From Armatimonadota bacterium (GTDB lineage: Bacteria; Armatimonadota; HRBIN16): a stretch of 64,000 nucleotides of DNA. Of this stretch, positions 5,403 to 43,140 are shown one piece after another (position 1 is the first letter of the stretch; the number at the start of each line of letters is the position of its first letter). The notes beneath the pieces were generated by a model. The model saw only the letters and a list, made by a program, of their open reading frames with translations. It was not told where the DNA came from and did not search any database. The position numbers and the translations under genes are program-made. The stretch spans positions 1,017,864 through 1,081,863 of the forward strand of contig OW818647.1 in NCBI GenBank assembly GCA_942492855.1, written 5' to 3'.

Positions 5403-5732
5403 TGTTTTATATCCTTATTGGAAAATAGTTCAGAACATCTGAAGATTGATATTTCCGTTAAGAACACCTATTGTCGTTGGTTCTTTTCAGAACACTATCG
5501 TGGTTAATTCTTTTGGTTAAGGTCAGGCATCACTACTAGTTCACTTGAACGTGGCGATGCAGATGGAAGGAGGTTGAAGCACTGCATTGCTAAGGTTGAT
5601 TCACTTGGAATACGATAGCGAAGCGGGTCTTGTCTATCAAAGCCCTCGGCGTTGAAGGCTAAACTTTAACTGGCTGAGTAGCTGAAGTATCATAATGCTT
5701 TCTGACTTCAGCCAGAATTAAATCTATGTCCA

Positions 5733-6413
5733 TTACTTCTGAAGCATCTGGATGAACTGGTCTGTGGGCGAAAGCGTGTCCGCAGGACTCTGTTCTTTTG
5801 AAGTAGTCCGGGTGGCCTTGGTGGAGTTAATCATCTTCTCACCCATGATGGCTCCAAAAGCTCTGTGAACATCCAGCTTTGCCTGAGCAGCTACCGTCAG
5901 GATATCCTGTACCTCTGCATCGGTTGGTTCAAGGCCGGTGTCTTGTGCAATCTGTCGTATCTTGTCAGCACCTGCACTTACAAACTCTTCAAACAGTCGC
6001 TTGGATTGAGCCTGCTGCTGTGCTTGCATGGCTTGTTTCATCTGTTCAACCTGCTGGTTTAAAGCATTTATCTTACTTTCGTAAGGGTCTGTCCATACAT
6101 CGGCAGTATCAGTAGGAGCATCCTGTGGAGCACTGTCTCCATTGATAATACTGTCCAAAAAGCTCATGTCCATTTCTGGCGCTGGAGCATTGGCAGACTG
6201 CATGGCCTTGGCAGACTGCATGGCCTTGGCAGACTGCATGGCCTGCGTAGTTCGTGATTGATACACTCTGCGTATCTGTTCAGCTACACCTTGGTATTCC
6301 TGTGGTAGCTGGGCAATCAGGTCTCCAATCTTAGGATCGGCTTCTGGAGTTTCAGGTACTTCTGGTGCTTCTGGAGTCATCATCGCTGCGAGTTCTTCTT
6401 CTGGAGTGGGCAT
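5733..6413 (-). CDS. Capsid scaffolding protein
   Basis: 226 aa, acidic/Pro-rich N-terminus and coiled-coil (LNQQVEQMKQAMQAQQQ), lying between portal and capsid. Confidence 0.75.
   Translation of the reverse strand: MPTPEEELAAMMTPEAPEVPETPEADPKIGDLIAQLPQEYQGVAEQIRRVYQSRTTQAMQSAKAMQSAKAMQSANAPAPEMDMSFLDSIINGDSAPQDAPTDTADVWTDPYESKINALNQQVEQMKQAMQAQQQAQSKRLFEEFVSAGADKIRQIAQDTGLEPTDAEVQDILTVAAQAKLDVHRAFGAIMGEKMINSTKATRTTSKEQSPADTLSPTDQFIQMLQK
6190..6243. repeat. Perfect 18-bp tandem repeat x3 (QSAKAM units) in scaffold gene
   Basis: TTGGCAGACTGCATGGCC repeated three times. Confidence 0.95.
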
Positions 6414-6427
6414 ATTAATTCCTTATC

Positions 6428-7777
6428 TTATTGAGCAGGCTGAGCCTGAACAGGTTGCGCCTGTGGTTGTTGCATAGGCATCTGTTGTAGTTGTTCTGTG
6501 ACAAATTCGTCAGGGTTAAGACCGTATGATCTGAGTAGTCGTTTTACAAGTAGTTGAGTATTCACACCTGGTGCGCCGTTAAGCATCTGAATCAATCCTT
6601 GGGTTTCCTGCCTTCGCTGAAGGGCCTCAGCGTATCCGACAGTCGCCAGACGAATAGTTATGCCATCAAGTACATTCTTATAAGGTGTGGCAGGTCCAAA
6701 GGTGATTGGTTCGCCATCAATAACCAGCTCAGCATATTCAATTTCGTTTGAAGGGAGACGGCATAGGTAGCTTCTATAATCCTTGATAATCAAGTCAAGC
6801 CATCTGGCTACACGATCCCCATAGTAGCTGGAACGCACACCACTCTGGCTTTGAATGGCTATACTCTCAGTGGCTAAATCAACACTTGGAGCAGCTATCC
6901 CACGCTGGTACGGATTGACTCCAGTTCTGGACGTGATCTCATTCGAGAGGATGTTGAATCCACCCACTAGGTCATTAATGGATTGACGCTCTACTGGGTT
7001 GAATGCTGACCCTTTCTCAGAGTTAACTACTTCAACCACCTCATAGCGTTCATGGATGTTAGCAGCACTCTCAGGGTCTTTCAGCATGGTTGAATCTACC
7101 ATTGCCAGTCCTGATCTCTTGCCGATCTGATCTATTGAATAGATTGTGCTGTCGTAAGCATCGGCTAATCCTGCTACTCGCTCTATAACACTAATAGGCA
7201 GTGTATTAAGCGTAGAATTCAACCTGGGCCGTTCCAGTCCAAATAGCCAGTGTGGAGTGTATCTCCAGTTCTTAAAGGTGCAAAGCTTGAAGTCACCGGT
7301 GTAATAGGTGACATCAGTACCGTCATATACTTCAGTGATGGTTACGGTGTCATTGTCATTAGGCAGTTTACGATGGAACCGCTTGGCTGCATCAACTCTT
7401 GACATTTTGAACTCACGGATACTTCCTTCAGGTTCAAAGATGGATCCGGTCCAGCTCGCTTCATCAGGACGTAAAGCTCTTGGTCCGAAAGGGGTGATGA
7501 ATATTCCTCCAGCACCGCACACAATCCAGTCACGAACGGCAGTTTCACACCGCATCGCCAGATGCCTGTCATACATGGATGTAATCAGTTCATCAGCTAT
7601 CCTGTCAGCAGGTTCAGCTATGAAATCTACTTTACCAATATACAGAGAAACTGAGATGTCGGCGATATCCATACGAATACCTGCCACAGCAGTTTGCCTT
7701 AGCTCATCACACGTGGACCGCCTGTTCTTGATGACATCGGTGATTGCCGAAGCTGGGTTACTCATTCTGTGCTCCAA
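6428..7777 (-). CDS. Portal protein
   Basis: 449 aa after terL; podoviral portal-like C-terminus (EITSRTGVNPYQRG...ATESIAIQSQSGVR...LLRSYG) with Q-rich tail; start may be the second Met (MSNP). Confidence 0.8.
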   Translation of the reverse strand: MEHRMSNPASAITDVIKNRRSTCDELRQTAVAGIRMDIADISVSLYIGKVDFIAEPADRIADELITSMYDRHLAMRCETAVRDWIVCGAGGIFITPFGPRALRPDEASWTGSIFEPEGSIREFKMSRVDAAKRFHRKLPNDNDTVTITEVYDGTDVTYYTGDFKLCTFKNWRYTPHWLFGLERPRLNSTLNTLPISVIERVAGLADAYDSTIYSIDQIGKRSGLAMVDSTMLKDPESAANIHERYEVVEVVNSEKGSAFNPVERQSINDLVGGFNILSNEITSRTGVNPYQRGIAAPSVDLATESIAIQSQSGVRSSYYGDRVARWLDLIIKDYRSYLCRLPSNEIEYAELVIDGEPITFGPATPYKNVLDGITIRLATVGYAEALQRRQETQGLIQMLNGAPGVNTQLLVKRLLRSYGLNPDEFVTEQLQQMPMQQPQAQPVQAQPAQ

Positions 7778-8024
7778 AGTGTTGGTTCATGGTCTCGGCC
7801 ACCTCACGTGCTTTATCTATACGTGCCTTGCTTGCTTTAGGTTGTCTCATCTTCCTGTCCAAAGCTTCCTGGTATACATCGGTCCCACCAATAATCTTGG
7901 CACTAAGTGGAAACTGTCTTGTCATATTTATAAAACACTTTGGGCAGCTTACGTACTGCTCCAAGGTGGCTTGAGATTCAACTCTGAGATTACAACTTGG
8001 GCACACGAAATCATAAATTGGCAT
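7758..8024 (-). CDS. FmdB-family zinc-ribbon protein
   Basis: MPIYDFVCPSC...CPKC signature. Confidence 0.85.
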   Translation of the reverse strand: MPIYDFVCPSCNLRVESQATLEQYVSCPKCFINMTRQFPLSAKIIGGTDVYQEALDRKMRQPKASKARIDKAREVAETMNQHFGAQNE

Positions 8025-8025
8025 A

Positions 8026-9282
8026 CTAAATTTTTCTCCTTACTGGTTGCTTCAATAATTTGGTCCTGCGTATCGACTCCTCCACCCATTCCTTGCTTCC
8101 AAAAGCTATATTCTTAGGTGCTGTTTGAAGGTGGAGATAGGCCAGAGCGTATCGTAATGAGTCCAAAAGGTGATCTTCACCGATTAGGTCTTCAGGATTC
8201 CTAGGGTCAACCTGGGCATTCTGGAACTCACTATGAATATTGGGTAGTTCACAAGCATAGTGAAGCTTGCCTTCACGGAGCAGCTGTCTTAACAGTGCTA
8301 TGGTGCCCTTTCTGTCTTTGGTACCGGGAATGGTGTTCAATCCTGACTGCTGCCATAGATCAGCCACTGACTCGCGTCCTGCACTTGTAAAGCAGGAACT
8401 GTCAGCTACAACCGTACAGCCTTCAGGTAATCCCATGGAAAGCACTTGGCCTGCCTGTTCTGCTGGAGTTAAGCCAGTAGCATACCGCTCAACATGAATG
8501 TAGAAATGGCCTTCAGTGTCCTTGGAGATTAGCAGGGAAGCAAAGGGAGCCGCCCAACCCCAGTCTAGTCCAGACACATATACTTGATTACCGCTTGGTG
8601 CTTTGATGTCAGGAAGGACGTTAAACGCTTTGCCTATATTAGTAACGATTAGAGCCTCAACTTCGCTCTGAAACACTACGTCGGGTAGACTTGCTCTCAT
8701 AGCTTCAATCTCTTCAGGATCAATAAAGGGATTACTGCTTGTCGGCATTCTCCATGAAGCCCAAGTTTCATCATCTAGCAGTGATGCCACCCAGTCAGCC
8801 CCTCTTGGGCTTGATATAATCATAGCCTTGCCGCGCTTGTCAGCTAGAGCTGGTCGCAAACAGTTGTTCCAGATGTCTTCAATGCCGTTGATGTGGCAAG
8901 CTTCATCAATGATAAGAAGGTCAAGTCCCGCACCACGCATACTCTTCGGGTTGTCACTGCTCTTACACTCGATAGTGCAATCACCAATGACCATTCTGTG
9001 TATAGGCATCATCGAGTACCGGTAAGGGATACTTAACTTATCTAGTGCTAATTGAAGGTAGTGCAGTATTTCCTTGGCTTGTGCATGGATAGGACTGACT
9101 ATCCATATACGGCAACCTGGTTTCTCAATAATCATTCGTAAACATTCAGCAGCAGCTAAATATGATTTGCCCCATCTTCTACCACACAAACAGAGACGGA
9201 ACCTGGCATCATTTTCGAAAACAGGTATCTGATTTAGGTGCAGGCCAAGCCCACAACTAGTCAGTAGGGTTTGTATCAGCAT
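8026..9282 (-). CDS. terL: Terminase large subunit
   Basis: Walker A-like CGRRWGKS, Walker B LLIIDEA, coupling motif IISSP, nuclease GLDWG and C-terminal DHLLDSLRY. Confidence 0.95.
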   Translation of the reverse strand: MLIQTLLTSCGLGLHLNQIPVFENDARFRLCLCGRRWGKSYLAAAECLRMIIEKPGCRIWIVSPIHAQAKEILHYLQLALDKLSIPYRYSMMPIHRMVIGDCTIECKSSDNPKSMRGAGLDLLIIDEACHINGIEDIWNNCLRPALADKRGKAMIISSPRGADWVASLLDDETWASWRMPTSSNPFIDPEEIEAMRASLPDVVFQSEVEALIVTNIGKAFNVLPDIKAPSGNQVYVSGLDWGWAAPFASLLISKDTEGHFYIHVERYATGLTPAEQAGQVLSMGLPEGCTVVADSSCFTSAGRESVADLWQQSGLNTIPGTKDRKGTIALLRQLLREGKLHYACELPNIHSEFQNAQVDPRNPEDLIGEDHLLDSLRYALAYLHLQTAPKNIAFGSKEWVEESIRRTKLLKQPVRRKI

Positions 9283-9634: not shown

Positions 9635-10003
9635 TTAGGCAGCAACTTCCGGTTCAACCGTCTGTACCATTCGTGCCAGTTCCACGCACCGGCCAGCATG
9701 TGAAATCATGGCATCCTGCTCGGTGGCTATACCGATCTGGCAAACGGCATGACGCAGGCACCACAGTGCATTCATCATGTCGGTGTTTGCTTGTTCAGGA
9801 TTGCCTTGTGCCATCCAGTATGCATAGCACTGCTGAAACAGAGTGCCTGCACTTACGAAGTCGCTGTTGCCTAGGTATGCCATTATGGCTTGTTCTGGGC
9901 TGAGTTGTATTACTTCTGAAGGGGTTACGAGATTGTCCATAAATGTTATATGTCCTTTTGGTTTCTTATAAACGAGGAGTGGAAATCTTGGGGCACCCGT
10001 CAC
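9635..10003 (-). CDS. Phage hypothetical protein
   Basis: 122-aa ORF coupled to the putative terS; start uncertain (GTG 10003 or a later ATG). Confidence 0.6.
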   Translation of the reverse strand: MTGAPRFPLLVYKKPKGHITFMDNLVTPSEVIQLSPEQAIMAYLGNSDFVSAGTLFQQCYAYWMAQGNPEQANTDMMNALWCLRHAVCQIGIATEQDAMISHAGRCVELARMVQTVEPEVAA

Positions 10004-10171
10004 GATGCCCCATAGACCAAGGAGGTTGGAAAACCCTGACCAATGGCAAGTAAATCAAGGCTTAGGGCTGAGGAGGTACAGCCCTAGTTACTCACACCCC
10101 TGGGATCAGATCCCTATGTGTGTGATAGAGGTTTTTACCCCTCTATATACTAGGATAGGTAGGAGGGGTAA

Positions 10172-11389
10172 TTACGGTTTCATAGCCTTCAGAGGTAATA
10201 CTTTGATATGCTTGAACAGGTCAGATACAGAACACCCTAATGCCTCGGCTATCTTTCCAGCCTGCTCTTTGGTTGGAATTCGTCCACAGTAGACCATGTC
10301 CTTGATCGTACTAGTAAGTAAACCTGTCTCATTAGCCAACCTAGGCATGGTTGTATGCGTGGCAATAGCATCACGCAGAGCGATATTTCCTGTCGTATCG
10401 AGCCTGCATTTCCTGTTCACTGCTTCACGGGTTGCAGTTCGTACGTTCGTATACCTAATAACTGGGAATAGTCTGTGGATGTTAGCCTTTAGGTGGCTGG
10501 CAACTGTCTTTGCTTGTTTCTCTGTGGGAAGAGCTTCACCATTCACTATTCTTCGTAACACAGATTTTGAAATGCCAGTGCATTCAACTATCTTTAGTAC
10601 GGATGTTTCGTAGTGACTATCAAGGTGTTTCCATAGTGTGGTGGTCACAGTATCGCTTTGCATCTCGTAACACAACTCATTTACGCTTGTGTGAAGCACC
10701 TTGCATATGTGCGACAGGTCATCGGGTATTGAACCACGATACATACTGTCTACCGTCAATGGCGTCACACCTAGCAAGGTAGAAAGACGCAGGCAGGTTA
10801 TACCTTGTGCTATGGCATGATTGTGTATGTTTTGACCGATCCTCTTATCTGATAACTTAGCAGGAATTGGTTCTCTTTGTATCTGAGGGAATAGTGTGTC
10901 CATATTCTTAGGATCAGCAAATAGGTTCGCTATAGAACAGTTCATAGCACCACATATTGCTTCAGCCTGCAGGCGTGTGGGCTCTGAATATCCATTAGTG
11001 ATGTTATTCACAACAGCTACACTTAATCCCGTCATCCTGCAGAGCTGATCATTGTTAATACCTGCAGTATGTACCATACGATTCAAGACCTTATCAACTG
11101 TTCGAAGCTGATGTGGTGGTGGGGATATCATCTCATGCCAAGTATTAGCTTCGAATTCTTTAGCAGTGATCCCGTCAGCCACCATCGATTCAGCACTCTG
11201 TGGTTTCATTCCGCTATAAGGCCTGATCTGATCCCATAAATCGGTTACCCTCACGCCAAGCATCTCGGCTATACCCTCAGCATCTCGCCATGAGGGTATA
11301 GTACCATTGATGAGGTCTCGTACTTCATTTGGGTATAGGTGAGCGGCAGCAGCAAAGGTCTCTACGTCAATGCCTTTCTCCTCTAGCAT
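10172..11389 (-). CDS. Transcriptional regulator with five tandem Cro/C1 (XRE) HTH domains
   Basis: Five repeats of the pattern L..TG.S...I..I.NG...P....A..IA..LG..V.DLF; probable start at ATG 11389 (ORF track extends it to 11440). Confidence 0.8.
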   Translation of the reverse strand: MLEEKGIDVETFAAAAHLYPNEVRDLINGTIPSWRDAEGIAEMLGVRVTDLWDQIRPYSGMKPQSAESMVADGITAKEFEANTWHEMISPPPHQLRTVDKVLNRMVHTAGINNDQLCRMTGLSVAVVNNITNGYSEPTRLQAEAICGAMNCSIANLFADPKNMDTLFPQIQREPIPAKLSDKRIGQNIHNHAIAQGITCLRLSTLLGVTPLTVDSMYRGSIPDDLSHICKVLHTSVNELCYEMQSDTVTTTLWKHLDSHYETSVLKIVECTGISKSVLRRIVNGEALPTEKQAKTVASHLKANIHRLFPVIRYTNVRTATREAVNRKCRLDTTGNIALRDAIATHTTMPRLANETGLLTSTIKDMVYCGRIPTKEQAGKIAEALGCSVSDLFKHIKVLPLKAMKP

Positions 11390-11399
11390 GTCTGCCAGC

Positions 11400-11969
11400 C
11401 TACCCACGAGCCAGCATCCTGTCGATGGACCAACCTGCATGGTATCGGTAGCGCATTACATTTGAATCTAGTCCAGTCAGCTCTGCTAAGTCACATAGTG
11501 GCAACATCAAACCGCCATAATCCAGCTTGATGGTTCGAGAGGTGTTACGCTGCTGACGCTTCCATGTGGTCCATCTACAGTTGGACAGCTCGTATCCTTT
11601 ATCATTGTCAATCCTGTCGATGGTTTGGCATCCTGATGGCCTTACTCCCATGTCGGCTATGAACACTGCAAAGTCATGCCACTCTGGGCACACTGTGATA
11701 CCGCGTTCGCCGTAGTAGTGATAGTCCTTGTTGTTTGGATTTTCGCATCGTTGAAGCATAGATGTCCACACACTATATTCTGGAGTATGCTTCATACCAT
11801 GGTGCGATACTGTACACCCGCAGCTCTTGGTCTTACCGTGTCGAACATCAGAATGTAGTGGTGTAGTCACGTTTCCGCAATCGCACAAGCACTCACATCT
11901 GGCTTTCGGAAGCATCTTGGTAACAACCAGTCGGCCAAACCTCTGGCCAGTAATATCGATTAGATTCAT
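11400..11969 (-). CDS. HNH homing endonuclease (free-standing)
   Basis: GQRFGRLVV, CxCDCG, KSCGC, YSVWTSMLQRC, YYGERGITVC and TIDRIDNDKGYELSNCRW motifs. Confidence 0.9.
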   Translation of the reverse strand: MNLIDITGQRFGRLVVTKMLPKARCECLCDCGNVTTPLHSDVRHGKTKSCGCTVSHHGMKHTPEYSVWTSMLQRCENPNNKDYHYYGERGITVCPEWHDFAVFIADMGVRPSGCQTIDRIDNDKGYELSNCRWTTWKRQQRNTSRTIKLDYGGLMLPLCDLAELTGLDSNVMRYRYHAGWSIDRMLARG

Positions 11970-12391
11970 TATTTATCTCTCCTGGAAACAATCACATATC
12001 TCTTTATGTTCTCAATCTCGTTTTCAACTGTCTTAATAGTCAACCCCATCATCTTGGCAATCTCACGTATCCGCCAGCCACAGATTATGTAGTAAACGAT
12101 GTCCCGTGCTTGAGTACCAATACTGGATTCCAGGTCGGTCAGAAACACGAAGTCACTGTCATCTGGCGTGTAGCCAATCTGTCCAACATCAACACCGGCC
12201 ATGCGTTTAGCGTGGTGCCGTTGGTTGCGTGCGATACTAGCTGATCGTCGCTGAGCAAATGTCTCAATGGGTTCTTGTCTGGTCGATGATGTGTAGTCGA
12301 TGAATATCTGGGTAGCATTGGTTGGGTAGTTGCGGATCAGATAGGTGCTAATCTCTTTATCGGTCATGATCGTCACGCAGAGCATTAACAA
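11969..12391 (-). CDS. Sigma-70 region-4/LuxR-type HTH protein, candidate late-gene activator
   Basis: C-terminal GWRIREIAKMMGLTIKTVENEIENIKR; located upstream of the packaging genes. Confidence 0.7.
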   Translation of the reverse strand: MLMLCVTIMTDKEISTYLIRNYPTNATQIFIDYTSSTRQEPIETFAQRRSASIARNQRHHAKRMAGVDVGQIGYTPDDSDFVFLTDLESSIGTQARDIVYYIICGWRIREIAKMMGLTIKTVENEIENIKRYVIVSRRDK

Positions 12392-12509
12392 GCTCTTTCA
12401 GTAGTAGCAAGCTATCATCGAGTACAGCATCAATCCGATCAATGATCATGTACACGGTCTCGTTGCGTACAACTTCACATAGTTCTGTGTAGGTAGCAGG
12501 TGTTTCCAT
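12357..12509 (-). CDS. Phage hypothetical protein (about 50 aa)
   Basis: AAGGAG RBS then ATG at 12509 (METPATY...). Confidence 0.5.
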   Translation of the reverse strand: METPATYTELCEVVRNETVYMIIDRIDAVLDDSLLLLKELVNALRDDHDR

Positions 12510-12519
12510 TGCAGTCTCC

Positions 12520-12774
12520 TTAGAGGTGGATGTCAGAGCCAATACACACGTCGCCATTAATCATGTATCGGTTAAATAGGTCACGGGGTTTACAGTCGAG
12601 GGCGTTAGCAATTCTCATGGCTACAGCTATTGTCGGGATCATACTTCCTGTGCTGTATCTGCTCAGGTGCTGTACTCCGATACCTGTCCTGAAAGATAGC
12701 TGCTGGCGGTTGATACCTCGGTCGATTTGGTATGCTACCATCGGTGATAGTTTTGGGGGGCGTCCTGTTCTCAT
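12520..12774 (-). CDS. Cro/C1-type HTH regulator
   Basis: RQQLSFRTGIGVQHLSRYSTGSMIPTIAVAMRIANALDCKPRDLF XRE pattern; first gene of the leftward operon. Confidence 0.85.
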   Translation of the reverse strand: MRTGRPPKLSPMVAYQIDRGINRQQLSFRTGIGVQHLSRYSTGSMIPTIAVAMRIANALDCKPRDLFNRYMINGDVCIGSDIHL

Positions 12775-13148
12775 TGATTACCTTCTTTAATGGTTTTTAT
12801 TCGGCTTCAAATATTAATTCAAAATAGACAACAATGGAAACGTGCATTATGCCCCAATATCCTAAGATAAGACAGTAAATATACCTGTTTTTAGAAATTG
12901 GTAAAAAATAAGTGAGATTGTCTGTTACTGAGTAGGATAACAGTCGAGAAAGTGTACCATTTGCGAAATGTCTGCATATGATAATAGTAGATGCCCAACT
13001 AACAGGTGGTATGTACTATTCTTTGAAATAGGCGGGAGGCAGAAAACTAAATAGAGTGTGTGTTCCCCATTAAAGCTGTCTCTGGCTCCATTGTGTGATT
13101 CTGCGCTCCCTACCTGGTTCTTGTTCGCTGGGTAGGGATTATTCTTAG

Positions 13149-13184
13149 AAAACAGGAAACCCCACTGCCGTAAGCAAAGGGGTT
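13149..13184 (-). terminator. Probable terminator of the 14232-13249 gene trio
   Basis: Minus strand AACCCC-TTTGC-TTAC-GGCAGT-GGGGTT followed by TCCTGTTTT. Confidence 0.55.
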
Positions 13185-13248
13185 ATTGGGATAGCGATTC
13201 CTGACACCACAAGGCCCATACAGAGCATTGTTTGTATTACTGGAGTAT

Positions 13249-13506
13249 TTATGAAGGGTTATTTAGTAGATAGTCTTCCGTAATCTTCTTGACTTGTGCT
13301 GCTGTTAGCCCCTTCTCTTGAACAAAGGTTTCGAAGATTCTTCTCGATACTTCAAGATGTGGGTAATCAACTTCACTTATGGGGACGTTCGATAATATGG
13401 TATGCGGTACCAATTGAAGAATAGTCTCATAGTTGGCCTTATCCACTTCGTCTTTTATCCTAGTGATGTATGCATAATCTTTTTCTACGTAGTCATAGTT
13501 CGGCAT
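13249..13506 (-). CDS. Phage hypothetical protein
   Basis: 85 aa, separated from the upstream ORF by 1 nt. Confidence 0.65.
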   Translation of the reverse strand: MPNYDYVEKDYAYITRIKDEVDKANYETILQLVPHTILSNVPISEVDYPHLEVSRRIFETFVQEKGLTAAQVKKITEDYLLNNPS

Positions 13507-13507
13507 A

Positions 13508-13870
13508 CTATTTCACTACCACCCTGTGATGACGAACCGCATCTATTAGGTCGGCAGCATCTTCGAAGGCATGACCTTCAAAAACCTCAAGTTGTGTAGC
13601 TATTACCAAATAGGTATATAGAACCATATTATCACTTGCTACTCTATCAACTAATTCCATTAGTTCTCCAGCAGTATATGTACCTTGAGTTGTAACCGCT
13701 GTATGCAGTTTCTTATGTCGGGACAATACTGCAGCTTTTGTTGCAGCTTCATCTAATATATCTAAAGCCTCCACACGAAGCTTTGCCATTTCTTCAACAG
13801 CAGTTGGGGAATCGCCATCTTTAAAACTGTTCAAAGATGCTGGAACGTCTATTGCTATACCACTAAACAC
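13508..13870 (-). CDS. Phage hypothetical protein
   Basis: 120 aa, stop/start overlap with the upstream ORF. Confidence 0.7.
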   Translation of the reverse strand: MFSGIAIDVPASLNSFKDGDSPTAVEEMAKLRVEALDILDEAATKAAVLSRHKKLHTAVTTQGTYTAGELMELVDRVASDNMVLYTYLVIATQLEVFEGHAFEDAADLIDAVRHHRVVVK

Positions 13871-14232
13871 TATTTACCTACCTTGAACCTATAGTCCTTG
13901 GGAAACACTCTGCCATTAGCTATTTTTAGTACGTCATCTGCTGTAGTGGTGATGGGATCCTGGCCCATAAACCAACTGACTTCAGTGGCAATATTTATAT
14001 AGTGCCTAATAAGCAATACGCAGCTGCTGGCTATTGATAGTTGATTCCATAGCTCCTCAGTGTTGGCACCTATAAAATCCAATCCAACATCCGCATTAGC
14101 CATATCTTCGATTAACTCAAGGGATGAAAGCTCATTCTCTAAATCTACCCAGATTCTTCCTAAAGCCTCCATACGTAGCTCGTTCATCGGAGCGTCGTTC
14201 TTTAAAGGAACGAATGTGACACCTTGCAACAT
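13870..14232 (-). CDS. Phage hypothetical protein
   Basis: 120 aa; AAGGAG RBS upstream. Confidence 0.7.
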   Translation of the reverse strand: MLQGVTFVPLKNDAPMNELRMEALGRIWVDLENELSSLELIEDMANADVGLDFIGANTEELWNQLSIASSCVLLIRHYINIATEVSWFMGQDPITTTADDVLKIANGRVFPKDYRFKVGK

Positions 14233-14577
14233 CGCTTATATCTCCTTAAGTAGTGGTAACGGTAAAAGCATACCGTACATGTGCCAGTGTTGCAAGGGCA
14301 TCCCATCTGACCGTTGTTGTTCTTTTTCAGCAGGCGAAGCGTAGCTTCGGCGGAGGTACCGGTACCATCGACCGCTGCTTGGTATCCGCTCCCCACAGCT
14401 TGCTGTGCCTGCTGAACCCTTCGCCCAACCATATGAGGATCAAGACCCCAAGGAGCGGAGCGACGTTGAAGTTATTAATTATCTCAAAACATTAATATCT
14501 TAGTTATTTACGACTGTTAGTATCCTACCGGTACATATGGAAGTAAGGTAAAAAGTGAGCGTAGCGAACGAGATATT

Positions 14578-14810
14578 ACTATAGAGAGAGACTTGTCTCT
14601 ATAGTATATATCAAGTGAGCGTGCCTAATTACAAACTGTAATACAACACATACTCTAAGGGGATTTTATTACATTACAGTGTTAGAACACTTGAAATCTC
14701 TGTAATGCAACACATACTCTAAGCCCTCTTTTTTACATTACAGTTTTAACCAAGGTGTTCAGCAACTGTAATGTAGCACACTCCCTAAGTGGCAAATATT
14801 ACATTACGAG
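14578..14810. repeat. Putative phage replication origin: palindrome plus three 44-46-bp inverted-repeat units
   Basis: ACTATAGAGA/TCTCTATAGT palindrome (14578-14605) and units CTGTAATRYAR-N22-TTACATTACRR at 14636, 14700 and 14766; gene-free AT-rich region directly upstream of the replication ATPase. Confidence 0.75.
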
Positions 14811-14942
14811 TCAATTTGTACCGAAATTGAATCTGCTGCATATAATAGAGTGTAATATCGCTCTATATGATATTTCAATTACTGAATATTTACAGTGAAT
14901 TCGAATTAATTAATGTAAGACCAATTTAACGGAGGTTACCAG

Positions 14943-16043
14943 ATGTCAGTAGTAGCAGATTTCCTTAACGAGTACCACAAGTATCTAGACGGTGATGTAG
15001 CAAAAGATGAGATGTTGGGTAAGTGGCAGAACTTGACACCAGACCATCAGAAGCTAGTAAAGCGAGCAGTAGAAACATCGAGTAAGTTCAACCTGTCCTA
15101 TTTCCTACAAGACACCCTATGCCCATCCAACTCTGAGGGACAGATAGTACTATCCAGTGCTATCTTAGCTGATGATGAAGTGATAGATGTTGAACTCCCA
15201 CTGCTGGGACGAACAGGAAGCAATCTATTGTTTGAAGGAAGAGCAGCAATTATAGTTGCCGGAGCAAAGACAGGCAAGTCAATGCTAATGCTTCACTCTT
15301 TCAAACACTGGGAAGGTAAAGAGATCAAGATCTACACCGAAGAGAAGCGACCCACTTGGAACAGACGACTACACAAACTGCAGGATGCTGGAATTGTATT
15401 GGATAACCTGAAGATTGTCTATGATCAGAACGTAGGCTTCAGTGAAGTGCTGACAGGCATCTACAATACCGAGAGAAACGGAATAGTAATACTCGACACT
15501 CTCAGACGATACGGAAACTACACAGATGAGAATGACGCAATACAGGCACAGGCGGGTGTAGTACCTCTGATCGAAGCTGCAGAAGATGCCGGTGTCACAT
15601 TGATTGCCCTGCACCACAGCAACAAGACGTCATCCGAATACGGTAACCGTAGTGCTGTTTATGCAAGTGCCGGATCAACTGCCATCACAGCTAAGTTCGA
15701 TTCGATAATCCAAATCAAGAAGTGCGGTGACAAGTTAGTTATCGATGGAGACGTAAGGGATTACAAAGCCAGTAAGCTTGAAGCCAAGTGGATTGACAAC
15801 TTGCTTACTGCTATTGATCCACATGTGAACCCAGAAACTGGTAAAGAATTTACGCTTCCTGAAAAGATACTCAACCTGTTAAGAGAGGAACCAGGACTAA
15901 CGAGAAACGAGATATATGAAAAACTACAGGCAGGTTCACAAGAATCGATCAGAGTTGAAGTAAGCAACCTCAAGGGTAAAGGGAAGCTCATAGAAACTGG
16001 TTCGAGAGCCACAGCCACATATTCATTGCCGGAGGAAAACTAG
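14943..16043 (+). CDS. AAA/RecA-like replication ATPase/helicase (RepA/AAA_25-like) with C-terminal winged HTH
   Basis: Walker A AGAKTGKS, Walker B VILDTL, LIALHH.NK and AGSTAI motifs; C-terminal GLTRNEIYEKL...VSNLKGKGKL wHTH; GGAGG RBS. Confidence 0.85.
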   Translation: MSVVADFLNEYHKYLDGDVAKDEMLGKWQNLTPDHQKLVKRAVETSSKFNLSYFLQDTLCPSNSEGQIVLSSAILADDEVIDVELPLLGRTGSNLLFEGRAAIIVAGAKTGKSMLMLHSFKHWEGKEIKIYTEEKRPTWNRRLHKLQDAGIVLDNLKIVYDQNVGFSEVLTGIYNTERNGIVILDTLRRYGNYTDENDAIQAQAGVVPLIEAAEDAGVTLIALHHSNKTSSEYGNRSAVYASAGSTAITAKFDSIIQIKKCGDKLVIDGDVRDYKASKLEAKWIDNLLTAIDPHVNPETGKEFTLPEKILNLLREEPGLTRNEIYEKLQAGSQESIRVEVSNLKGKGKLIETGSRATATYSLPEEN

Positions 16044-16343
16044 ATGTCCAGACTTATATATCCTACCGAATATCCAAAACAAGTAACTATCGAGCTATTC
16101 ATCCCGTACCATAATGAGATAGTCAATGTCCCCGCTACGATGGAGAATGGGACAGTGTATGTCAGGAAAGACGTGATGCACGCAGCCAAGATATCACAGT
16201 GTGATCCAGACTGTATAGGACCTGATAAGTGCAAGGGTTGTAGCTACTACATGCACATGGTAGATGGAGCAGACCATAAGTTAGTCGATGATGGTAAATA
16301 CTACAAACTCGTGTTCCTGCCAGACCTATTTGGTGATTACTAG
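16044..16343 (+). CDS. Phage hypothetical protein with a Cys cluster
   Basis: 99 aa coupled to the ATPase; CDPDCIGPDKCKGC. Confidence 0.65.
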   Translation: MSRLIYPTEYPKQVTIELFIPYHNEIVNVPATMENGTVYVRKDVMHAAKISQCDPDCIGPDKCKGCSYYMHMVDGADHKLVDDGKYYKLVFLPDLFGDY

Positions 16344-16447
16344 ATGAAATACACCATCCACAAGAACGGAAAGCCAGGCACACTACACGCGCCAACCGAC
16401 TGCTGCGTAGAGCGCACAGAAAATAGAAAAACTTCAGGGAGAAAGTA

Positions 16448-16651
16448 ATGCACACAATATATTCAGTTATGGACCAGAACAGCACCTTCACAGATGACGA
16501 AGGCAACATAATGATGGAGTGTTTTTTCCATTCAAAAGAGGAAGCAATAGCTTATATGTCAGAGCACAACATAGCCAGTGAGATCGAAGAGACTGAATGT
16601 ATAACCAGTGACGAGTATTGGGCAGAGCGAAGGAAAACCAGTGAGGATTGA
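16448..16651 (+). CDS. Phage hypothetical protein
   Basis: 67-aa acidic ORF with upstream GGGAG. Confidence 0.55.
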   Translation: MHTIYSVMDQNSTFTDDEGNIMMECFFHSKEEAIAYMSEHNIASEIEETECITSDEYWAERRKTSED

Positions 16652-16718
16652 TAGAGACCTGCCACAGGGCACAGTCATGATACCAGCCAGGTTTGGGAGG
16701 TGAAACATCAAGCACAAC

Positions 16719-17120
16719 ATGTGTTATACCACTGAGTACCATTCTTGGAGAGCAATGAAACAACGGTGTCTGTGTCCCACCAACGGGAACTACCCAAACT
16801 ATGGAGGACGTGGCATCGGCGTAGACGATGACTGGAAAGGCAGTTTCGAGAAGTTCATAGACGACATGGGACCTAAGCCAGCACCCGATTACTCCATCGA
16901 CCGCATTGATGTCAATGGCGACTACTGCAAAGATAACTGTAAATGGGCATCGATAAAGGAACAGTCAACTAACCGTCGTAACACGATCCGTGTAGACATC
17001 AATGGCGAAGCACTCACACTGCCAGAGATCGCAGAACGCACAGGCATTAACATCAAGACCATCCAGAAACGCTACTACAGCGGCAAACGGGACGATGATC
17101 TGATCAAGCCTGTCAAGTAG
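16719..17120 (+). CDS. HNH endonuclease lacking the N-terminal zinc module
   Basis: EYHSWRAMKQRC, NYGGRGI and SIDRIDVNGDYCKDNCKW motifs; in-frame TGA at 16701. Confidence 0.8.
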   Translation: MCYTTEYHSWRAMKQRCLCPTNGNYPNYGGRGIGVDDDWKGSFEKFIDDMGPKPAPDYSIDRIDVNGDYCKDNCKWASIKEQSTNRRNTIRVDINGEALTLPEIAERTGINIKTIQKRYYSGKRDDDLIKPVK

Positions 17121-17121
17121 G

Positions 17122-17156
17122 AAAACCCCTGTGTTTAGTATGCTCAGGGGTTTTTT
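17122..17156. terminator. Bidirectional terminator between convergent HNH and integrase genes
   Basis: AAAACCCCTG-N13-CAGGGGTTTTTT. Confidence 0.85.
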
Positions 17157-18046
17157 CATCTCTTTAAGCGGTGTGTCCAGCTCACTGTTTCGTGAACCTG
17201 CTGCAGTACCTCAGGCCGTATGCCAAGGTATTTCTGGGTGGTTGCAAGGGAAGCGTGACCCAACAGTTGACGTACCACTTCAAGGTTCGCTCCGCTTTCC
17301 ACCCATGCTGTCGCAGCTGCACGCCTTAGCATATGTGGTGAGATGTGTATGTGAGCCATCTTACACCGCCTCTGGAACATCAACCTAATAGCGTTGCTAG
17401 TCATCGGGTCATCATATCGGTCAACGAACAGAGAGTTGCTGTGATCAGGCCTAGACGCCATATAACGGATCAGCATCATCCTGGTTTTTGATGTGATGAA
17501 CACATATCTGTCACGCCTACCCTTTGTCTCATGAAGCACGATATTCCCTTCGATGGCATCACGTGTCAATCCAACCAACTCACCCATCCTGCAGCCTGTA
17601 TCAAGCAGGAACAGGATGATTGCCCGGTCACGCAAGTCAAGCAGTTCTTTCCCGCACGTGTTTAGAAGCTCAAGTATGGTTTTGTCAGTAGGGGGTGACT
17701 TCTGTTCGCTGTCCACCTTAGGGGGCCTTAGCTTTGCAAGCGGTGGCGCAGGCACAAGCTCTTGATTGTATACCCAGTTCGAAAAGGCCTTGAGTGTCCT
17801 GTATATGGCATGTACCGAGATCGGCTTGATTCCACGTTCAGTGGCTGCGATCAGCAAGCGGTTTGCCACGAGTAGCGTCATATCGCCAATGGTTGGTGCC
17901 ACCTCAGGGAGGTTTCGCAGGTTTTCCTGGTAGAACTCAAGTGTCCTTGGTCGCAGTCCCCTAGCTCGACAATCCTGTAGAAAGTAGGTTATAATATCTG
18001 AGGTCACAAGGGCTTTCTGATTCGTATGAATCAGGAGCTCGTCCAT
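17156..18046 (-). CDS. int: Tyrosine recombinase/integrase (XerC/D-like, no arm-binding domain)
   Basis: RDRAII.FLLDTGCRMGEL, ETKG, HMLRR, LLGH and TTQKY catalytic motifs; 296 aa. Confidence 0.95.
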   Translation of the reverse strand: MDELLIHTNQKALVTSDIITYFLQDCRARGLRPRTLEFYQENLRNLPEVAPTIGDMTLLVANRLLIAATERGIKPISVHAIYRTLKAFSNWVYNQELVPAPPLAKLRPPKVDSEQKSPPTDKTILELLNTCGKELLDLRDRAIILFLLDTGCRMGELVGLTRDAIEGNIVLHETKGRRDRYVFITSKTRMMLIRYMASRPDHSNSLFVDRYDDPMTSNAIRLMFQRRCKMAHIHISPHMLRRAAATAWVESGANLEVVRQLLGHASLATTQKYLGIRPEVLQQVHETVSWTHRLKR

Positions 18047-18110: not shown

Positions 18111-18188
18111 GGCGGCTATAGCTCAGTTGGTTAGAGCGCCTGACTGTGGCTCAGGAGGTCGTGGGTTCAAATCCCATTAGCCGCCCCA
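18111..18188 (+). tRNA. tRNA-His (GUG)
   Basis: Acceptor GCGGCTA/TAGCCGC, anticodon arm CCTGA-CTGTGGC-TCAGG, GGTTCAAATCC T-arm, G-1 and C73 identity pair, encoded CCA. Confidence 0.97.
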
Positions 18189-31559: not shown

Positions 31560-32849
31560 TTACTCGAGCTTCGCGCCTTCCACGATCCGGCTGTAACCGC
31601 CCAGGAAGGGGCGCAGCGGCTCGGGGATCAGGATGCTGCCGTCGGCCTGCTGGTAGTTCTCCATGATGGCGATCATCACACGGGGCAGAGCCAGACCTGA
31701 GCCGTTCAGCGTATGCAGATACTCGGGTTTGGCACCCGCTTCCGCACGGTAACGGATGTTCGCACGCCGGGCCTGGAACTCCATGAAGTTGCTGCAACTG
31801 CTGACTTCCAGCCACTCCGCGCAGCCAGCCGCCCACAGCTCCACATCGTATTTCATTGCCGCGGTGAAGCTCAGGTCACCAGTACACATCTGCAGCAGTC
31901 GGTAGGGCAGGCCAAGCACTTTTGCGACATCAATCGCGTCGTTCACCAGCTTGTCAAGCTCCTCCACACTCGTTTCGGGTGTGACCAGTTTCACCATCTC
32001 CACCTTGTCAAACTGGTGGCCGCGCTTGATGCCGCGCACATCGCGCCCCGCCGACATCTTTTCGCGGCGGAAGCAGGCGGTGTAAGCCACATACTTCACC
32101 GGCAGCTCAGAGGCGTCAAGGATCTCGTCGCGGTGGAAGTTCGTCACCGGCACCTCAGCGGTCGGCACCCACCAGAGGTCTTCCTCGGCGTCGTGGTATA
32201 GGTTATCGCCGAACTTCGGCAGATTGCCCGTGCCCACCAGCGCCTCCTGCTTGACCATGTAAGGTGGGTAAAGCTCCGTGTAGCCGTGCTGAGTGGTGTG
32301 CAGGGTGAGCATGAAGTTGATGACCGCGCGCTGGAGGGCCGCCCCAGCGCCGCGCAGCACGTAGAACCGCGATCCGCTGATCTTCACACCGCGCTCGAAG
32401 TCGATGATGCCCAGCTTCTCCGCCAGTTCCCAGTGGGGTATCGGCGTGAAGTCGAACTGTGGCAGCTCTTGCTGCTGGAAGGTCACCACATTCTCGGTGT
32501 CGTCCTTGCCGATCGGCACAGAGGGGTGCGGAAGGTTCGGCACGCGCAGCATCTGCTCGTCAAAACTCTGAGCGATACTCATCAGCTCCGCCTCGAGGGC
32601 CGACACCTTGTCACCCACCTCGCGCATGGCGGCGATTTTAGCCTTCTTTTCCTCTGGCTCCTTGATGCGGGGAATCTCTTTGCTGACCGTGTTGCGTTCC
32701 GCGCGCAGCACGTCGATCTCGGTCATCAGCTCTCGGCGTTTGACATCGATGCTGATGAGGTTGTCCACCATCGCGGGGTCTTCGCCCAGCGCACTCAGCC
32801 CCTGCTTTACAAGGTTTGGATTTTCACGGATCAAGCGGATATCAAGCAT
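31560..32849 (-). CDS. serS: Serine-tRNA ligase
   Basis: MLDIRLIREN start with GGGAG RBS; PTAEVP, CFRREKMSAGRDVRGIKRGHQFDKVE, EVSSCSN and HTLNGSGLA class-II motifs. Confidence 0.98.
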   Translation of the reverse strand: MLDIRLIRENPNLVKQGLSALGEDPAMVDNLISIDVKRRELMTEIDVLRAERNTVSKEIPRIKEPEEKKAKIAAMREVGDKVSALEAELMSIAQSFDEQMLRVPNLPHPSVPIGKDDTENVVTFQQQELPQFDFTPIPHWELAEKLGIIDFERGVKISGSRFYVLRGAGAALQRAVINFMLTLHTTQHGYTELYPPYMVKQEALVGTGNLPKFGDNLYHDAEEDLWWVPTAEVPVTNFHRDEILDASELPVKYVAYTACFRREKMSAGRDVRGIKRGHQFDKVEMVKLVTPETSVEELDKLVNDAIDVAKVLGLPYRLLQMCTGDLSFTAAMKYDVELWAAGCAEWLEVSSCSNFMEFQARRANIRYRAEAGAKPEYLHTLNGSGLALPRVMIAIMENYQQADGSILIPEPLRPFLGGYSRIVEGAKLE

Positions 32850-32924
32850 GGCGACACTCCCAGTGTGGTGTTTTGTTCTATGATAGTAGTATATCATTCT
32901 GCGGGAAGCTGGGCGTGAGAACCC

Positions 32925-34204
32925 GTCTCACGCGAAGACGCGAAGGTATGGCCGCGCCGGTCTTTTCCCTGGGCAGGCAGCTATTGGCACGAAGGGGAGA
33001 ATCATCCACAGATTACTCAGATTACTCAGATTACACAGATTACACAGATTAGTTAGTGGACCGCGCCGGTTTCTCGGTATGCTTCCGACCGCTATGCAGC
33101 CCGCCTCCGGCGCGGTCTGGCGGATAGCCCTCCCTCTCCATCCGAGCCCATCCGTGTAATCCGCGTAATCCGTGGTTCAGACGAATGTCCGGCGCGGTCT
33201 GGCAAGTAGGGGCGATCGGCGATCGCCCTCCCCGCCCCGGGTTTAGTCACCCCACGGGACTGGCGTCCCTAAGGGGTTCCTGCACCGCACGGCTGATCAT
33301 TAGCGGCCGGTGTCGCTTCGCTCCGACCGGCGCAGGAGAAGCGCCGCATTCCGATTGCCTATGTCCCGGTTGGAGAATTCATCCACAGAAGGTACCAAAA
33401 GCGCCGATTAGGTAATAGACCGCGCCGGTTTCTCGGTACGCTTCCGACTGTTTTGCAGCCCGTCTCCGGCGCGGTCTGGCGGATAGCCCTCCCTCTCCAT
33501 CCGAACCTATCCGTGTAATCCGCGTAATCCGTGGTTCAGACGAATGTCCGGCGCGGTCTGGCAAGTAGGGGCGATCGGCGATCGCCCTCCCCGCCCCGGG
33601 TTTGGTCACCCCACGGGACTGGCGTCCCTAAGGGGTTCCTGCACCGCACGGCTGATCATTAGCGGCCGGTGTCGCTTCGCTCCGACCGGCGCAGGAGAAG
33701 CGCCGCATTCCGATTACCTATGTCCCGGTTGGAGAATTCATCCACAGAAGGTACCAAAAGCGCCGATTAGGTAATAGACCGCGCCGGTTTCTCGGTACGC
33801 TTCCGACCGCTATGCAGCCCGTCTCCGGCGCGGTCTGGCGGATAGCCCTCCCTCTCCATCCGATCTCATCCGTGTAATCCGCGTAATCCGTGGTTCAGAC
33901 GAATGTCCGGCGCGGGTTGGCCCATATCGAAGCCGGTCAGCCACGCTGCCGCGGGTTTAGTCACCCCACGGGACTGGCGTCCCTAAGGGGTTCCTGAACC
34001 GCACGGCTGATCATTAGCGGCCGGTGTCGCTTCGCTCCGACCGGCGCAGGGGAGGTGCCGCATCCCGATTTGCCGATGTCCGGCGTAGCAGAATTCATCC
34101 ACAGATGGCCCAGATGACACCGATTAGGTAATAGACCGCGCCGGTTTCTCGGTACGCTTCCGACTGTTTTGCAGCCCGTCTCCGGCGCGGTCTGGCGGAT
34201 AGCC
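32925..34204. repeat. Tandem array of about 359-bp REP-mosaic units (3 full + 1 partial) with a head module
   Basis: Unit start GACCGCGCCGGTTTCTCGGTA at 33059, 33418, 33777 and 34134; head TCTCACGCGAAGACGCGAAGG at about 32925; GATTAC(T/A)CA 9-mers at 33011-33051. Confidence 0.95.
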
Positions 34205-34222: not shown

Positions 34223-34723
34223 TTACGTAAGCTTATCAAGCCGACGACGGAACTCCGCGATCAATGGATCAGCCTTGAATCGTGATCTGTCGCATATACT
34301 CTGAGCTGCGGCCAAAGCATCGGCGGATGTAAGCTGACCCACCTCAACCAACTCGATCAGAATCTCTAGCCCCCATCTAGCATCAATACCATCAGAAATG
34401 GCCGCGTTAAGCAGTGCTCGATCATTAGTGTATAGTGTTCCTTTACAGTCTCGAGCATAAATCAGGCAAATCCTGTCACGAAATGACAATCCCCCACGCC
34501 GGGTGACGGCCTCTACCACAACCTGAATATCGGGCTCAACAACGCTTAACGCAAATCGTTCAATGGACATATCGTCAAGCTGATTGACTTCTTGTAAGAT
34601 CGGCGATAGTATGACGATCTTTCCGAGCGATGATGCGGCAAGACCGAGAAGACAAGGGTCTTCCAGACATATGTCGATCAGAACGCATGCATCGAGTATG
34701 AGCAAACGATCAGCCGCGACCAA
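34223..34723 (-). CDS. PIN-domain-like protein (putative ribonuclease toxin)
   Basis: N-terminal LLILDACVLID, then LSFRD..CL and LYTNDRAL acidic motifs; 1 nt downstream of the peptidase gene. Confidence 0.75.
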   Translation of the reverse strand: MVAADRLLILDACVLIDICLEDPCLLGLAASSLGKIVILSPILQEVNQLDDMSIERFALSVVEPDIQVVVEAVTRRGGLSFRDRICLIYARDCKGTLYTNDRALLNAAISDGIDARWGLEILIELVEVGQLTSADALAAAQSICDRSRFKADPLIAEFRRRLDKLT

Positions 34724-42982: not shown

Positions 42983-43140
42983 CACGGATTACACGGATTA
43001 CACGGATTACACGGATGGAGAGGGAGGCCAATCAGGCGATTGGCGTTCCCAGGTGGGCGGTTCTCGAACCGCCCAGGGCGACCGCCGGTCGCCCCTACCG
43101 GCGCGGTCATTACCCAATCTGTGAAATCTGTGCCATCTGT
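42983..43140. repeat. REP mosaic with 9-mer tandem CACGGATTA x3.8
   Basis: CACGGATTA at 42983, 42992, 43001 and partial at 43010; GGGCGACCGCCGGTCGCCCCTAC REP. Confidence 0.85.

Follow-up and report, generated by a model that had tools for sequence, protein, structure and literature searches.

Why does a prophage of an Armatimonadota bacterium (GTDB lineage Bacteria; Armatimonadota; HRBIN16) carry six copies of an 11-bp half-site, in alternating orientation, just upstream of a gene for a helicase-like ATPase? The prophage lies at the start of a 64,000-nucleotide stretch of contig OW818647.1 (assembly GCA_942492855.1, positions 1,017,864 to 1,081,863, forward strand), which I call the window and from whose first letter all positions are counted. 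An original prediction, made from the letters of the window, described these repeats as a novel replication origin or nucleoprotein wrapping site. The array is real, non-random and far beyond chance: it consists of clustered, specific repeats in non-coding DNA next to the gene of a replication protein, which are the marks of an iteron array. Its position directly upstream of an AAA_25 homologue of RepA/DnaB-type helicases also supports the predicted role as a cis element of a replication module. The reading I prefer, at a probability of about one half, is that the half-sites would be the cognate double-stranded DNA sites of a winged helix in this ATPase, acting as origin iterons, as an autoregulatory operator, or as both.

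The half-site, CTGTAATRYAR, starts at 14636, 14669, 14700, 14733, 14766 and 14799 on alternating strands, with successive starts 33, 31, 33, 33 and 33 bp apart. Re-reading of the sequence and a matrix scan confirmed these coordinates, orientations and spacings, which the original prediction had already given. The forward half-sites read CTGTAATACAA (14636), CTGTAATGCAA (14700) and CTGTAATGTAG (14766); the reverse ones read TTACATTACAG at 14669 and 14733 and TTACATTACGA(G) at 14799, the last being degenerate, with one base extra or changed. Together they form three tandem direct copies, with periods of 64 and 66 bp, of a unit that contains one inverted repeat and runs in the order CTGTAATRYAR, CACAYWCYCTAAG, nine poorly conserved bases, TTACATTACAG:

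Positions 14636 to 14679, plus strand: unit 1, made up of CTGTAATACAA, a 22-bp interior and TTACATTACAG.
Positions 14700 to 14743, plus strand: unit 2, made up of CTGTAATGCAA, a 22-bp interior and TTACATTACAG.
Positions 14766 to 14810, plus strand: unit 3, made up of CTGTAATGTAG, a 22-bp interior and a degenerate right arm, TTACATTACGAG, with a TTGTAC hexamer 6 bp on.
Positions 14647 to 14659, plus strand: interior block CACATACTCTAAG, identical at 14711 to 14723 and reading CACACTCCCTAAG at 14777 to 14789.

Each 11-bp arm corresponds roughly to two TGTAA pentamers, and the array holds about 12 pentamers of this type, six in each orientation. In every unit exactly 22 bp separate the arms, and the spacers between units measure 20 and 22 bp. 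Conservation across units is 77-100% for the arms and the CACA..CTAAG block, whereas the rest of the interior and the spacers show no relation in sequence but retain their length. The claim that the interiors share CACA..C.CTAAG and then diverge was borne out, as 7-8 nt of the interior are unrelated and the pattern CACAYWCYCTAAG has exact matches in the 64 kb solely at 14647, 14711 and 14777. This block always adjoins the forward arm, so that every unit is asymmetric. The array had also been called helically phased, which holds approximately, since 31-33 bp corresponds to about 3.0-3.1 turns.

A matrix built from the six sites gives its six top scores across the window, on both strands, to the six half-sites. 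This test is partly circular, being built from the same six sites, and counts of heptamers, pentamers and inverted repeats were added for that reason. CTGTAAT and its complement occur eight times in the 64 kb, five of them in the array; TGTAA/TTACA reaches 11 copies in 300 bp at the array against 1.2-2.1 per kb elsewhere; and there are 24 pairs of 9-mer inverted repeats (gap 15-40), against 2.7 (maximum 14) in 300 composition-matched shuffles. A degenerate fourth unit, which had been suspected at 14850-14895, did not survive scrutiny. A search with a covariance model of the unit yields no additional copy at E<=10 in the window or in the related loci L001 and L005 (described below), and the three weak matrix matches in this area, at 14850(+), 14874(-) and 14908(+), compare with 0.9 in composition-matched shuffles, which is not significant (p ~0.06). 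Neither the window's 46 kb of host DNA nor the related loci contained another copy of the array, and the rest of the prophage contained no further half-site.

The array occupies the promoter-proximal part of a divergent control region, and the gene that follows it is the main candidate for its binding partner:

Positions 14233 to 14942, no strand assigned: divergent non-coding region of 710 bp, defined from the list of open reading frames (ORFs), between a leftward operon (proteins of 120, 120 and 85 amino acids) and the rightward ATPase operon.
Positions 14811 to 14846, plus strand: palindrome TCAATTT-GTACCG-AAATTGA with a promoter-like TTGTAC-N19-TATAAT, a predicted promoter.
Positions 14943 to 16043, plus strand: gene for the 366-amino-acid RepA/DnaB-like ATPase (AAA_25, E 1e-10), a candidate binder with a probable C-terminal winged helix.

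The ATPase start codon lies 133 bp downstream of the array's end, and the rightward operon continues with a gene for a 99-amino-acid protein and then an HNH-like gene. Among those phage genes of the window that were scanned, none was recognised as a separate initiator. The closest solved structure to the ATPase is the hexameric helicase RepA of RSF1010 (1g8y, E 1.7e-7), with T7 gp4 and RadA weaker; its best matches are the RecA-fold RepA, DnaB and gp4 helicases, and it does not show the fold of AAA+ superfamily 3. A profile of 14 family members over the C-terminal ~70 residues matches winged helices at E 5e-5 to 5e-4, namely those of ADAR1 Z-alpha and of MarR/AdcR-type and Lrs14-type regulators. 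I regard the protein as a homologue of RepA/DnaB-type helicases with, probably, a C-terminal winged helix. An exhaustive HMMER search returned 508 relatives, only two of them (P0003 and P0004) at E<1e-30. Many of the others have 500-900 residues, and the two that were aligned carry a primase-type extension at the N-terminus and the same C-terminal domain.

How might such a protein use such an array? Because the 22-bp gap is fixed while the interior has diverged, the units seem to be recognised as duplex by a protein that contacts the arms. One winged helix would bind each 11-bp arm on duplex DNA, and a protein assembly touching both arms would set the gap. The ATPase would be a self-loading initiator-helicase, and the array its origin iterons, the operator of its own promoter, or both. 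As an origin it would work after the model of Rep of the Staphylococcus pathogenicity islands (SaPIs), a helicase that binds its sites by a C-terminal winged helix and loads itself. TTGTAC occupies 14816-14821, starting 6 bp after the end of the last arm at 14810; since the array abuts this promoter-like element, its occupancy should also influence how the ATPase gene is transcribed. The identity of the binding protein, and whether binding fires replication, represses transcription or does both, I can only infer.

Several observations weigh against this reading. As a single sequence, the C-terminal domain matches HTH_24 (E 0.003, under the Pfam cut-off) and related families, and the structure model of the ATPase, with a pLDDT (predicted local distance difference test) score of 51 and <50 over the C-terminal domain, is too poor to confirm the winged helix. 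Simple dimer binding to the arms leaves the asymmetric, conserved CACAYWCYCTAAG block unexplained, the 22-bp interior lacks the AT-richness of the SaPI origin's centre, and the arm centres are 33 bp apart, far wider than in a usual dimer operator. Finally, with two to three related loci, co-variation with the ATPase is inseparable from co-variation with the genes for the leftward 120-, 120- and 85-amino-acid proteins or with a multi-helix-turn-helix (multi-HTH) protein that is 32% identical in L001. A bolder version, which I consider a long shot, would make the six sites the template for one helicase oligomer with six winged helices (for example a trimer of dimers or a head-to-head pair), wrapping ~170 bp of promoter-proximal DNA. 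That would be a RecA-fold self-loading initiator-helicase with an undescribed origin architecture, in which CACAYWCYCTAAG might be a second contact or a loading or priming signal.

The comparison of related loci bears on the partner of the array, and the phage group concerned is almost unsampled. Relatives came only from the exhaustive HMMER search (P0003, P0004) and from the cluster of the 99-amino-acid protein. L001 is one 32-kb assembled contig carrying both P0003 and P0004, and L005-L007 are an IS21-disrupted prophage remnant in another genome of 5.2 Mb. A word-index search with the ATPase returned only itself and one weak match; an exact look-up of its sequence found no record; an ATPase alignment scanned against genomes and metagenomes gave no match, and neither did scans of viral contigs with the ATPase, the 24-nt unit pattern, the large terminase (TerL) and the remote homologue P0011; and scans of genomes and metagenomes with TerL gave only unrelated loci of 23-29% identity (L002-L004). 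The proteins of the window compare with those of L001 as follows:

TerL: 94% identity.
Integrase: 96% identity.
XRE-84 (the nearest XRE gene to the array): 93% identity.
99-amino-acid protein: 91% identity.
HNH-133: 86% identity.
ATPase, against the two L001 paralogues: 34% and 30% identity.
Five-HTH protein: 32% identity.
Proteins of 120, 120 and 85 amino acids: no L001 counterpart.

Nucleotide homology between the window and L001 ends at 12796 and restarts at 16077, a break which shows that the small leftward genes, the control region and the ATPase gene were exchanged as one block. The CTGTAAT array is absent from both L001 and L005. The original prediction had counted the lack of arrays beside homologous ATPases among the results that would speak against it: the same sequence is not there, but every homologous ATPase found has a repeat set of its own upstream, so that in spirit the prediction passes this check.

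In L001, two tandem paralogous ATPase genes (370 and 391 amino acids, 33% identical) occupy 10001-13272, each preceded by a control region of ~0.8-1.0 kb; this could represent two replication modules in one genome. The second of them, ATPase2, is 72% identical to the ATPase of L005, and the regions upstream of these two and of the window ATPase share a scaffold consisting of a GC-rich block, an AT-rich stretch, a repeat-flanked hairpin, the 9-mer ATTTGTACC and a ribosome-binding site, GGAGGTTACC. The features of the window control region, other than the array and the promoter, are:

Positions 14290 to 14468, no strand assigned: GC-rich patch (55-65% GC) that ends in AGGATCAAGACC..AAGGAGCGGAGCGACGTT, sharing blocks with several copies in the L001 gap before ATPase2.
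Positions 14469 to 14520, no strand assigned: AT-rich tract (22-28% GC), a putative unwinding region.
Positions 14553 to 14622, plus strand: direct repeats AAGTGAGCGT (14553 and 14613) around the palindrome TACTATAGAGA..TCTCTATAGTA (14577-14606).
Positions 14845 to 14866, plus strand: small hairpin ATAGAGTG..CGCTCTAT, within what is presumably the 5' leader.

The GC-rich block, as shared with L001, ends in GGAGCGGAGCGACGTT, with GGTTACCGGAGTGG at that position in L005, and ATTTGTACC lies ~129-135 bp before the ATG in all three loci, followed 19 bp on by TATAAT or TATGAT (window and L001). A second AT-rich tract of the window lies at 14840-14920, and neither tract falls between arms. What differs is the slot between the hairpin and ATTTGTACC. 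In the window this slot holds the three 44-bp units (191 bp); in L001 and L005 it measures 83-90 bp and holds GTTGTC GTTGTC GTTGTT, ~20 bp and an inverted AACAAC, which is the longest block identical between these two loci. Upstream of L001 ATPase1, AAAACAACAAT-N20-ATTGTTGTTTT surrounds the -35 hexamer of TTGAAT-N18-TATAGT; with its 11-bp arms and 20-bp gap, this inverted repeat has the same geometry as the window array. Further upstream of ATPase1 are at least six direct repeats TTCAWARAACGGRGA (of the TTCAWARAACGG type), for which the locus has nine matches against 1.7 expected, a number reached in none of 200 shuffles.

Thus every examined ATPase homologue is preceded by short direct and inverted repeats of its own, and different ATPases go with different sets. 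There are three repeat sets for three ATPase types, one of them common to the 72%-identical pair, a pattern that rests on three loci in which other cassette genes co-vary too. The GTTGTY-type loci have no adjacent leftward genes, and for that reason position within these three loci appears to favour the ATPase over the 120-amino-acid proteins as partner of the array.

Some further observations concern these control regions. The repeat-flanked hairpin is kept in all four (window 14553-14622, L001 9860-9895 and 11826-11882, L005 8537-8595), its stem sequence differing, with a purine-rich 5' arm, a pyrimidine-rich 3' arm and flanking direct repeats of 8-10 bp (AAGTGAGCGT, GACCGAGC, GACTGAAGC); it lacks a T-run and is thus not an obvious terminator. 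In L001 and L005 the counterpart of 14553-14622 reads GACYGA(A)GC, purine-rich hairpin, GACYGA(A)GC, and the window palindrome at 14577-14606 folds at -18.4 to -19.5 kcal/mol as RNA and at -7.4 (z -3.3) as DNA. The GC-rich non-coding element, with its recurring GGAGCGGAGCGAC and AGGATCAAGACC blocks, has one copy in the window (14290-14468) and about five in L001 (11320-11780), and it does not fold with significant stability (z -0.9 and -1.25). Before ATPase1, at L001 9257-9830, six clustered TTCAWARAACGGRGA..CTAAY direct repeats, 78 or ~140 bp apart, fill the 835-bp gap; co-varying stems around these repeats were considered, and the claim was dropped when only the first of seven hairpins proved significantly stable.

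If the ATPase is not the binder, the array could be an early-switch operator for another regulator of the cassette, one of the 120-amino-acid paralogues, the 85-amino-acid protein or the five-HTH protein, which would control divergent early promoters through a stretched version of a lambdoid tripartite operator or of the phage 186 CI cluster. The candidates beyond the ATPase are:

Positions 13870 to 14232, minus strand: first leftward gene, 120 amino acids, an alternative candidate binder and a paralogue of the next 120-amino-acid gene (27% identity).
Positions 10172 to 11440, minus strand: gene for a 422-amino-acid protein with about five tandem XRE-type HTH domains.

I find this operator possible but doubtful. 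In its favour, three dyad sites lie between divergent operons of an exchanged cassette, as in the lambdoid and 186 systems, the array is 6 bp from a promoter-like -35 element, and the leftward and multi-HTH genes are likewise replaced or strongly diverged in L001; immunity-type cassettes of lambdoid phages are typically swapped as whole units, which I also count on this side. However, lambdoid and 186 operators are 17-bp dyads 23-24 bp apart that overlap promoters, and the window array has no identifiable repressor gene beside it. Profile searches detected no DNA-binding domain or family in the 120- and 85-amino-acid proteins, the structure model of the 120-amino-acid protein (pLDDT 44) being unusable, and the analogous repeat sets before L001 ATPase2 and the L005 ATPase have no leftward genes next to them. 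For the five-HTH protein, which the original prediction had named as a possible binder, the evidence points neither way. It appears from its sequence to be a fast-evolving multi-HTH regulator (its L001 counterpart has 344 amino acids, and the flanking genes are 64-94% identical), but its gene is 3.2 kb away and the prophage has no half-site elsewhere, as a wider regulator might have. XRE-84, the integrase and the terminase are near-identical in a phage without the array and so are not its specific binders. This excludes an operator for XRE-84, at 93% identity in array-free L001, as well as pac/cos or integrase arm sites, given terminase and integrase conserved at 94-96%. A LexA box was rejected since CTGT..ACAG is there but 36 bp apart, not 8, and by eye there is no acceptable match to boxes for integration host factor or DnaA.

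Instead of a protein-binding site on DNA, the array might be an RNA element, transcribed most plausibly leftward in a long leader or small RNA, whose three hairpins with a partly conserved loop would act in cis on the leftward operon or in trans. This is improbable. The minus-strand folds are indeed somewhat more stable (-10.9, -11.6 and -15.1 against -8.5, -6.0 and -12.8 kcal/mol on the plus strand, with modest z of ~-1.9 to -2.6 overall and about -2 to -2.6 on the minus strand), a promoter-like site on that strand spans 14878-14849, and the loop-side conserved block could contact protein or RNA. Right arms are invariant wherever left arms vary, and the four left-arm deviations, all transitions, would give G-U pairs on the minus strand in three cases and on the plus strand in one; but this 3:1 split is not significant and hence uninformative, and the three units show no compensatory change between arms. 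Pairing between arms of adjacent units equals or surpasses that within a unit (12/12, 14734-14745 with 14764-14775), so that there is no unique fold and no defined hairpin unit. The stems are AT-rich around loops of 22-28 nt, the exact 22-bp spacing with a diverged interior fits recognition of duplex better, and an equally plausible leftward promoter, TTGCAA-N17-TATGCT (14296-14267, by eye), would leave the array untranscribed. Against Rfam 15, only tRNA-His (18112) reaches the gathering threshold in the whole window, and within 12700-15000 no match has an E below 1.3, and all are to eukaryotic families that are implausible here. The extrusion of each unit as a DNA hairpin, suggested earlier, is formally possible, but units 1 and 2 are barely stable as DNA (-1.5 and -2.9 kcal/mol, z -0.8 and -1.5). 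Least probable of all is a functionless recent tandem triplication or the decaying remnant of a mobile palindromic element. Direct repeats with a 64/66-bp period are what slipped duplication produces, and unit 3 is degenerate; yet the conservation of arms and interior block between stretches that have length but no sequence in common points to selection on defined blocks, the unit has no other copy in the window or related loci, and there is no target-site duplication. The absence of copies from the 46 kb of host DNA covered by the window and from the related loci equally dismisses the dispersed palindromes known as repetitive extragenic palindromes/bacterial interspersed mosaic elements or miniature inverted-repeat transposable elements. 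CRISPR (clustered regularly interspaced short palindromic repeats) or CRISPR-like arrays were rejected because a variable core divides the conserved sequence into two parts (24 + 13 nt), whose identity is 65-84%; the Rfam scan contains no CRISPR family and the neighbouring ORFs scanned no cas family match. The RNA of a Type III toxin-antitoxin system (ToxI-like) was set aside because the repeats have diverged and the downstream gene is a helicase-type ATPase. Tandem sigma-70 promoters within the units, sought by eye and by a promoter scan, amount to weak, inconsistent hexamers. No ORF of 14233-14942 is conserved with L001, the sole tblastx matches containing stop codons, and a hidden ORF in the control region was rejected with the finding that 14755-14898 and the ORFs of the GC-rich patch are not conserved.

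Returning to the ATPase as the binder, are there known systems of this kind? The original prediction had called the array novel on the ground that ordinary iterons are repeats of the same orientation only. That argument does not stand: RepA_N initiators of plasmids and PLEs (elements resembling phage-inducible chromosomal islands) have tandem repeats each containing a dyad (PMC7145576), and the C-terminal winged helix of SaPI Rep binds penta- or hexanucleotide iterons in opposite orientations, the hexameric helicase loading itself (PMC9371898). The window resembles SaPI Rep/ori in its helicase-type ATPase, in its winged helix (predicted here), in having short repeats in both orientations beside the helicase gene (SaPIs have 6-12 repeats) and in repeats that vary among relatives, as specificity does in SaPIs. 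However, SaPI Rep belongs to AAA+ superfamily 3 and the window ATPase to the RecA-fold AAA_25, so the resemblance would be one of function, not family. Furthermore, in SaPIs the ori follows rep and has a single AT-rich region with an iteron set on either side, whereas here the sites lie upstream, alternate every ~33 bp and have interiors that are not AT-rich. The iterons of the phage lambda O protein are also tandem repeats containing a dyad. Like these and the RepA_N repeats, which are bound by their own initiators, the window array has tandem direct repeats with inverted sub-repeats in each unit; but theirs are ~19-25 bp with adjacent half-sites, unlike the 44-bp units, 22-bp gap and 64-66-bp period found here, and the initiator families are unrelated.

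Other initiators offer partial parallels. RepE of F and RepA of pSC101 bind an inverted-repeat operator (the iteron core) at their own promoter, which couples replication control to autorepression, and the window array similarly abuts the promoter-like element of the ATPase gene. These are winged-helix initiators without helicase activity and their operators are single compact dyads, whereas the window has a helicase-type ATPase and three wide dyads. At site II of SV40 large T antigen and at the E1 site of papillomaviruses, an initiator-helicase meets inverted pairs of penta- or hexanucleotides (the SV40 core origin spans 64 bp), and the window likewise pairs inverted pentamer sites beside a helicase homologue; the viral proteins are eukaryotic superfamily 3 helicases with a different origin-binding domain and a compact, single-copy 27-bp palindrome. 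In RSF1010, whose RepA is the closest solved homologue of the window ATPase core, oriV brings together repeats, one GC-rich and one AT-rich stretch, and hairpins, a combination also present in the window region; its iterons are 20-bp direct repeats bound by a separate RepC, and RepA has no winged helix. RSF1010 RepB'/ssi also belongs to this comparison (PMC8567376). Most likely, then, the element is of an ordinary kind, and it is the geometry and the family of the partner that are new.

The wider setting is that of an integrated phage. From position 1 to ~18100 the window has 43-48% GC and phage genes, including those for tail fibre, capsid, portal (6428-7777) and large terminase (8026-9282); past the tRNA it has 51-61% GC and is read as host DNA. 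A tyrosine integrase gene (17156-18046) adjoins tRNA-His (18112-18188), and nucleotide homology to L001 extends to 18151, within tRNA-His, where the L001 contig ends, which fits an attachment site inside that gene. HNH-endonuclease-like paralogues (PHROG 374/3377) bracket the exchanged cassette at 11400-11969 (-) and 16719-17120 (+), and L001 has three (5451-6023, 7131-7919 and 13698-14294); they could be free-standing homing-type nucleases that promote module exchange. Before the XRE-84 gene, 12775-13248 comprises ~470 bp with no ORF and a strong terminator-like hairpin on the plus strand (13107-13138), and L001 has an HNH-like gene in this place. In L005, two inverted IS21 copies (transposase and IstB; 6004-8324 and 14889-17209) have cut and rearranged the prophage remnant, and one of them, ~500 bp upstream of the ATPase gene, truncates its control region. 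On the host side, a 359-bp tandem repeat (33047-34204, 3.2 copies, 92% identity, no Rfam match) lies in non-coding DNA between the ORFs 31560-32897(-) and 34223-34723(-), each copy containing GTCGCTTCGCTCC, one mismatch from the phage motif GGAGCGGAGCGAC; five 9-bp repeats CACAGATTA stand at 33007, with a related one at 42983. GGAGCG(G/A)AGCGAC as a motif common to phage and host was discarded, about four independent occurrences against 1.5 expected not being significant.

What would the array mean for this phage family? If the winged helix does not bind these sites, the array would be an ordinary regulatory or origin repeat in an obscure prophage. If it does, the ATPase would be a RecA-fold (RepA/DnaB-like) equivalent of those initiator-helicases that load themselves in SaPIs and eukaryotic DNA viruses, with a site geometry both well defined and easily mutated: pairs of pentamers, 22 bp between arms and a period of 65 bp. 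The swap of this cassette between two phages whose structural and integration genes are 94-96% identical provides a natural specificity-swap experiment.

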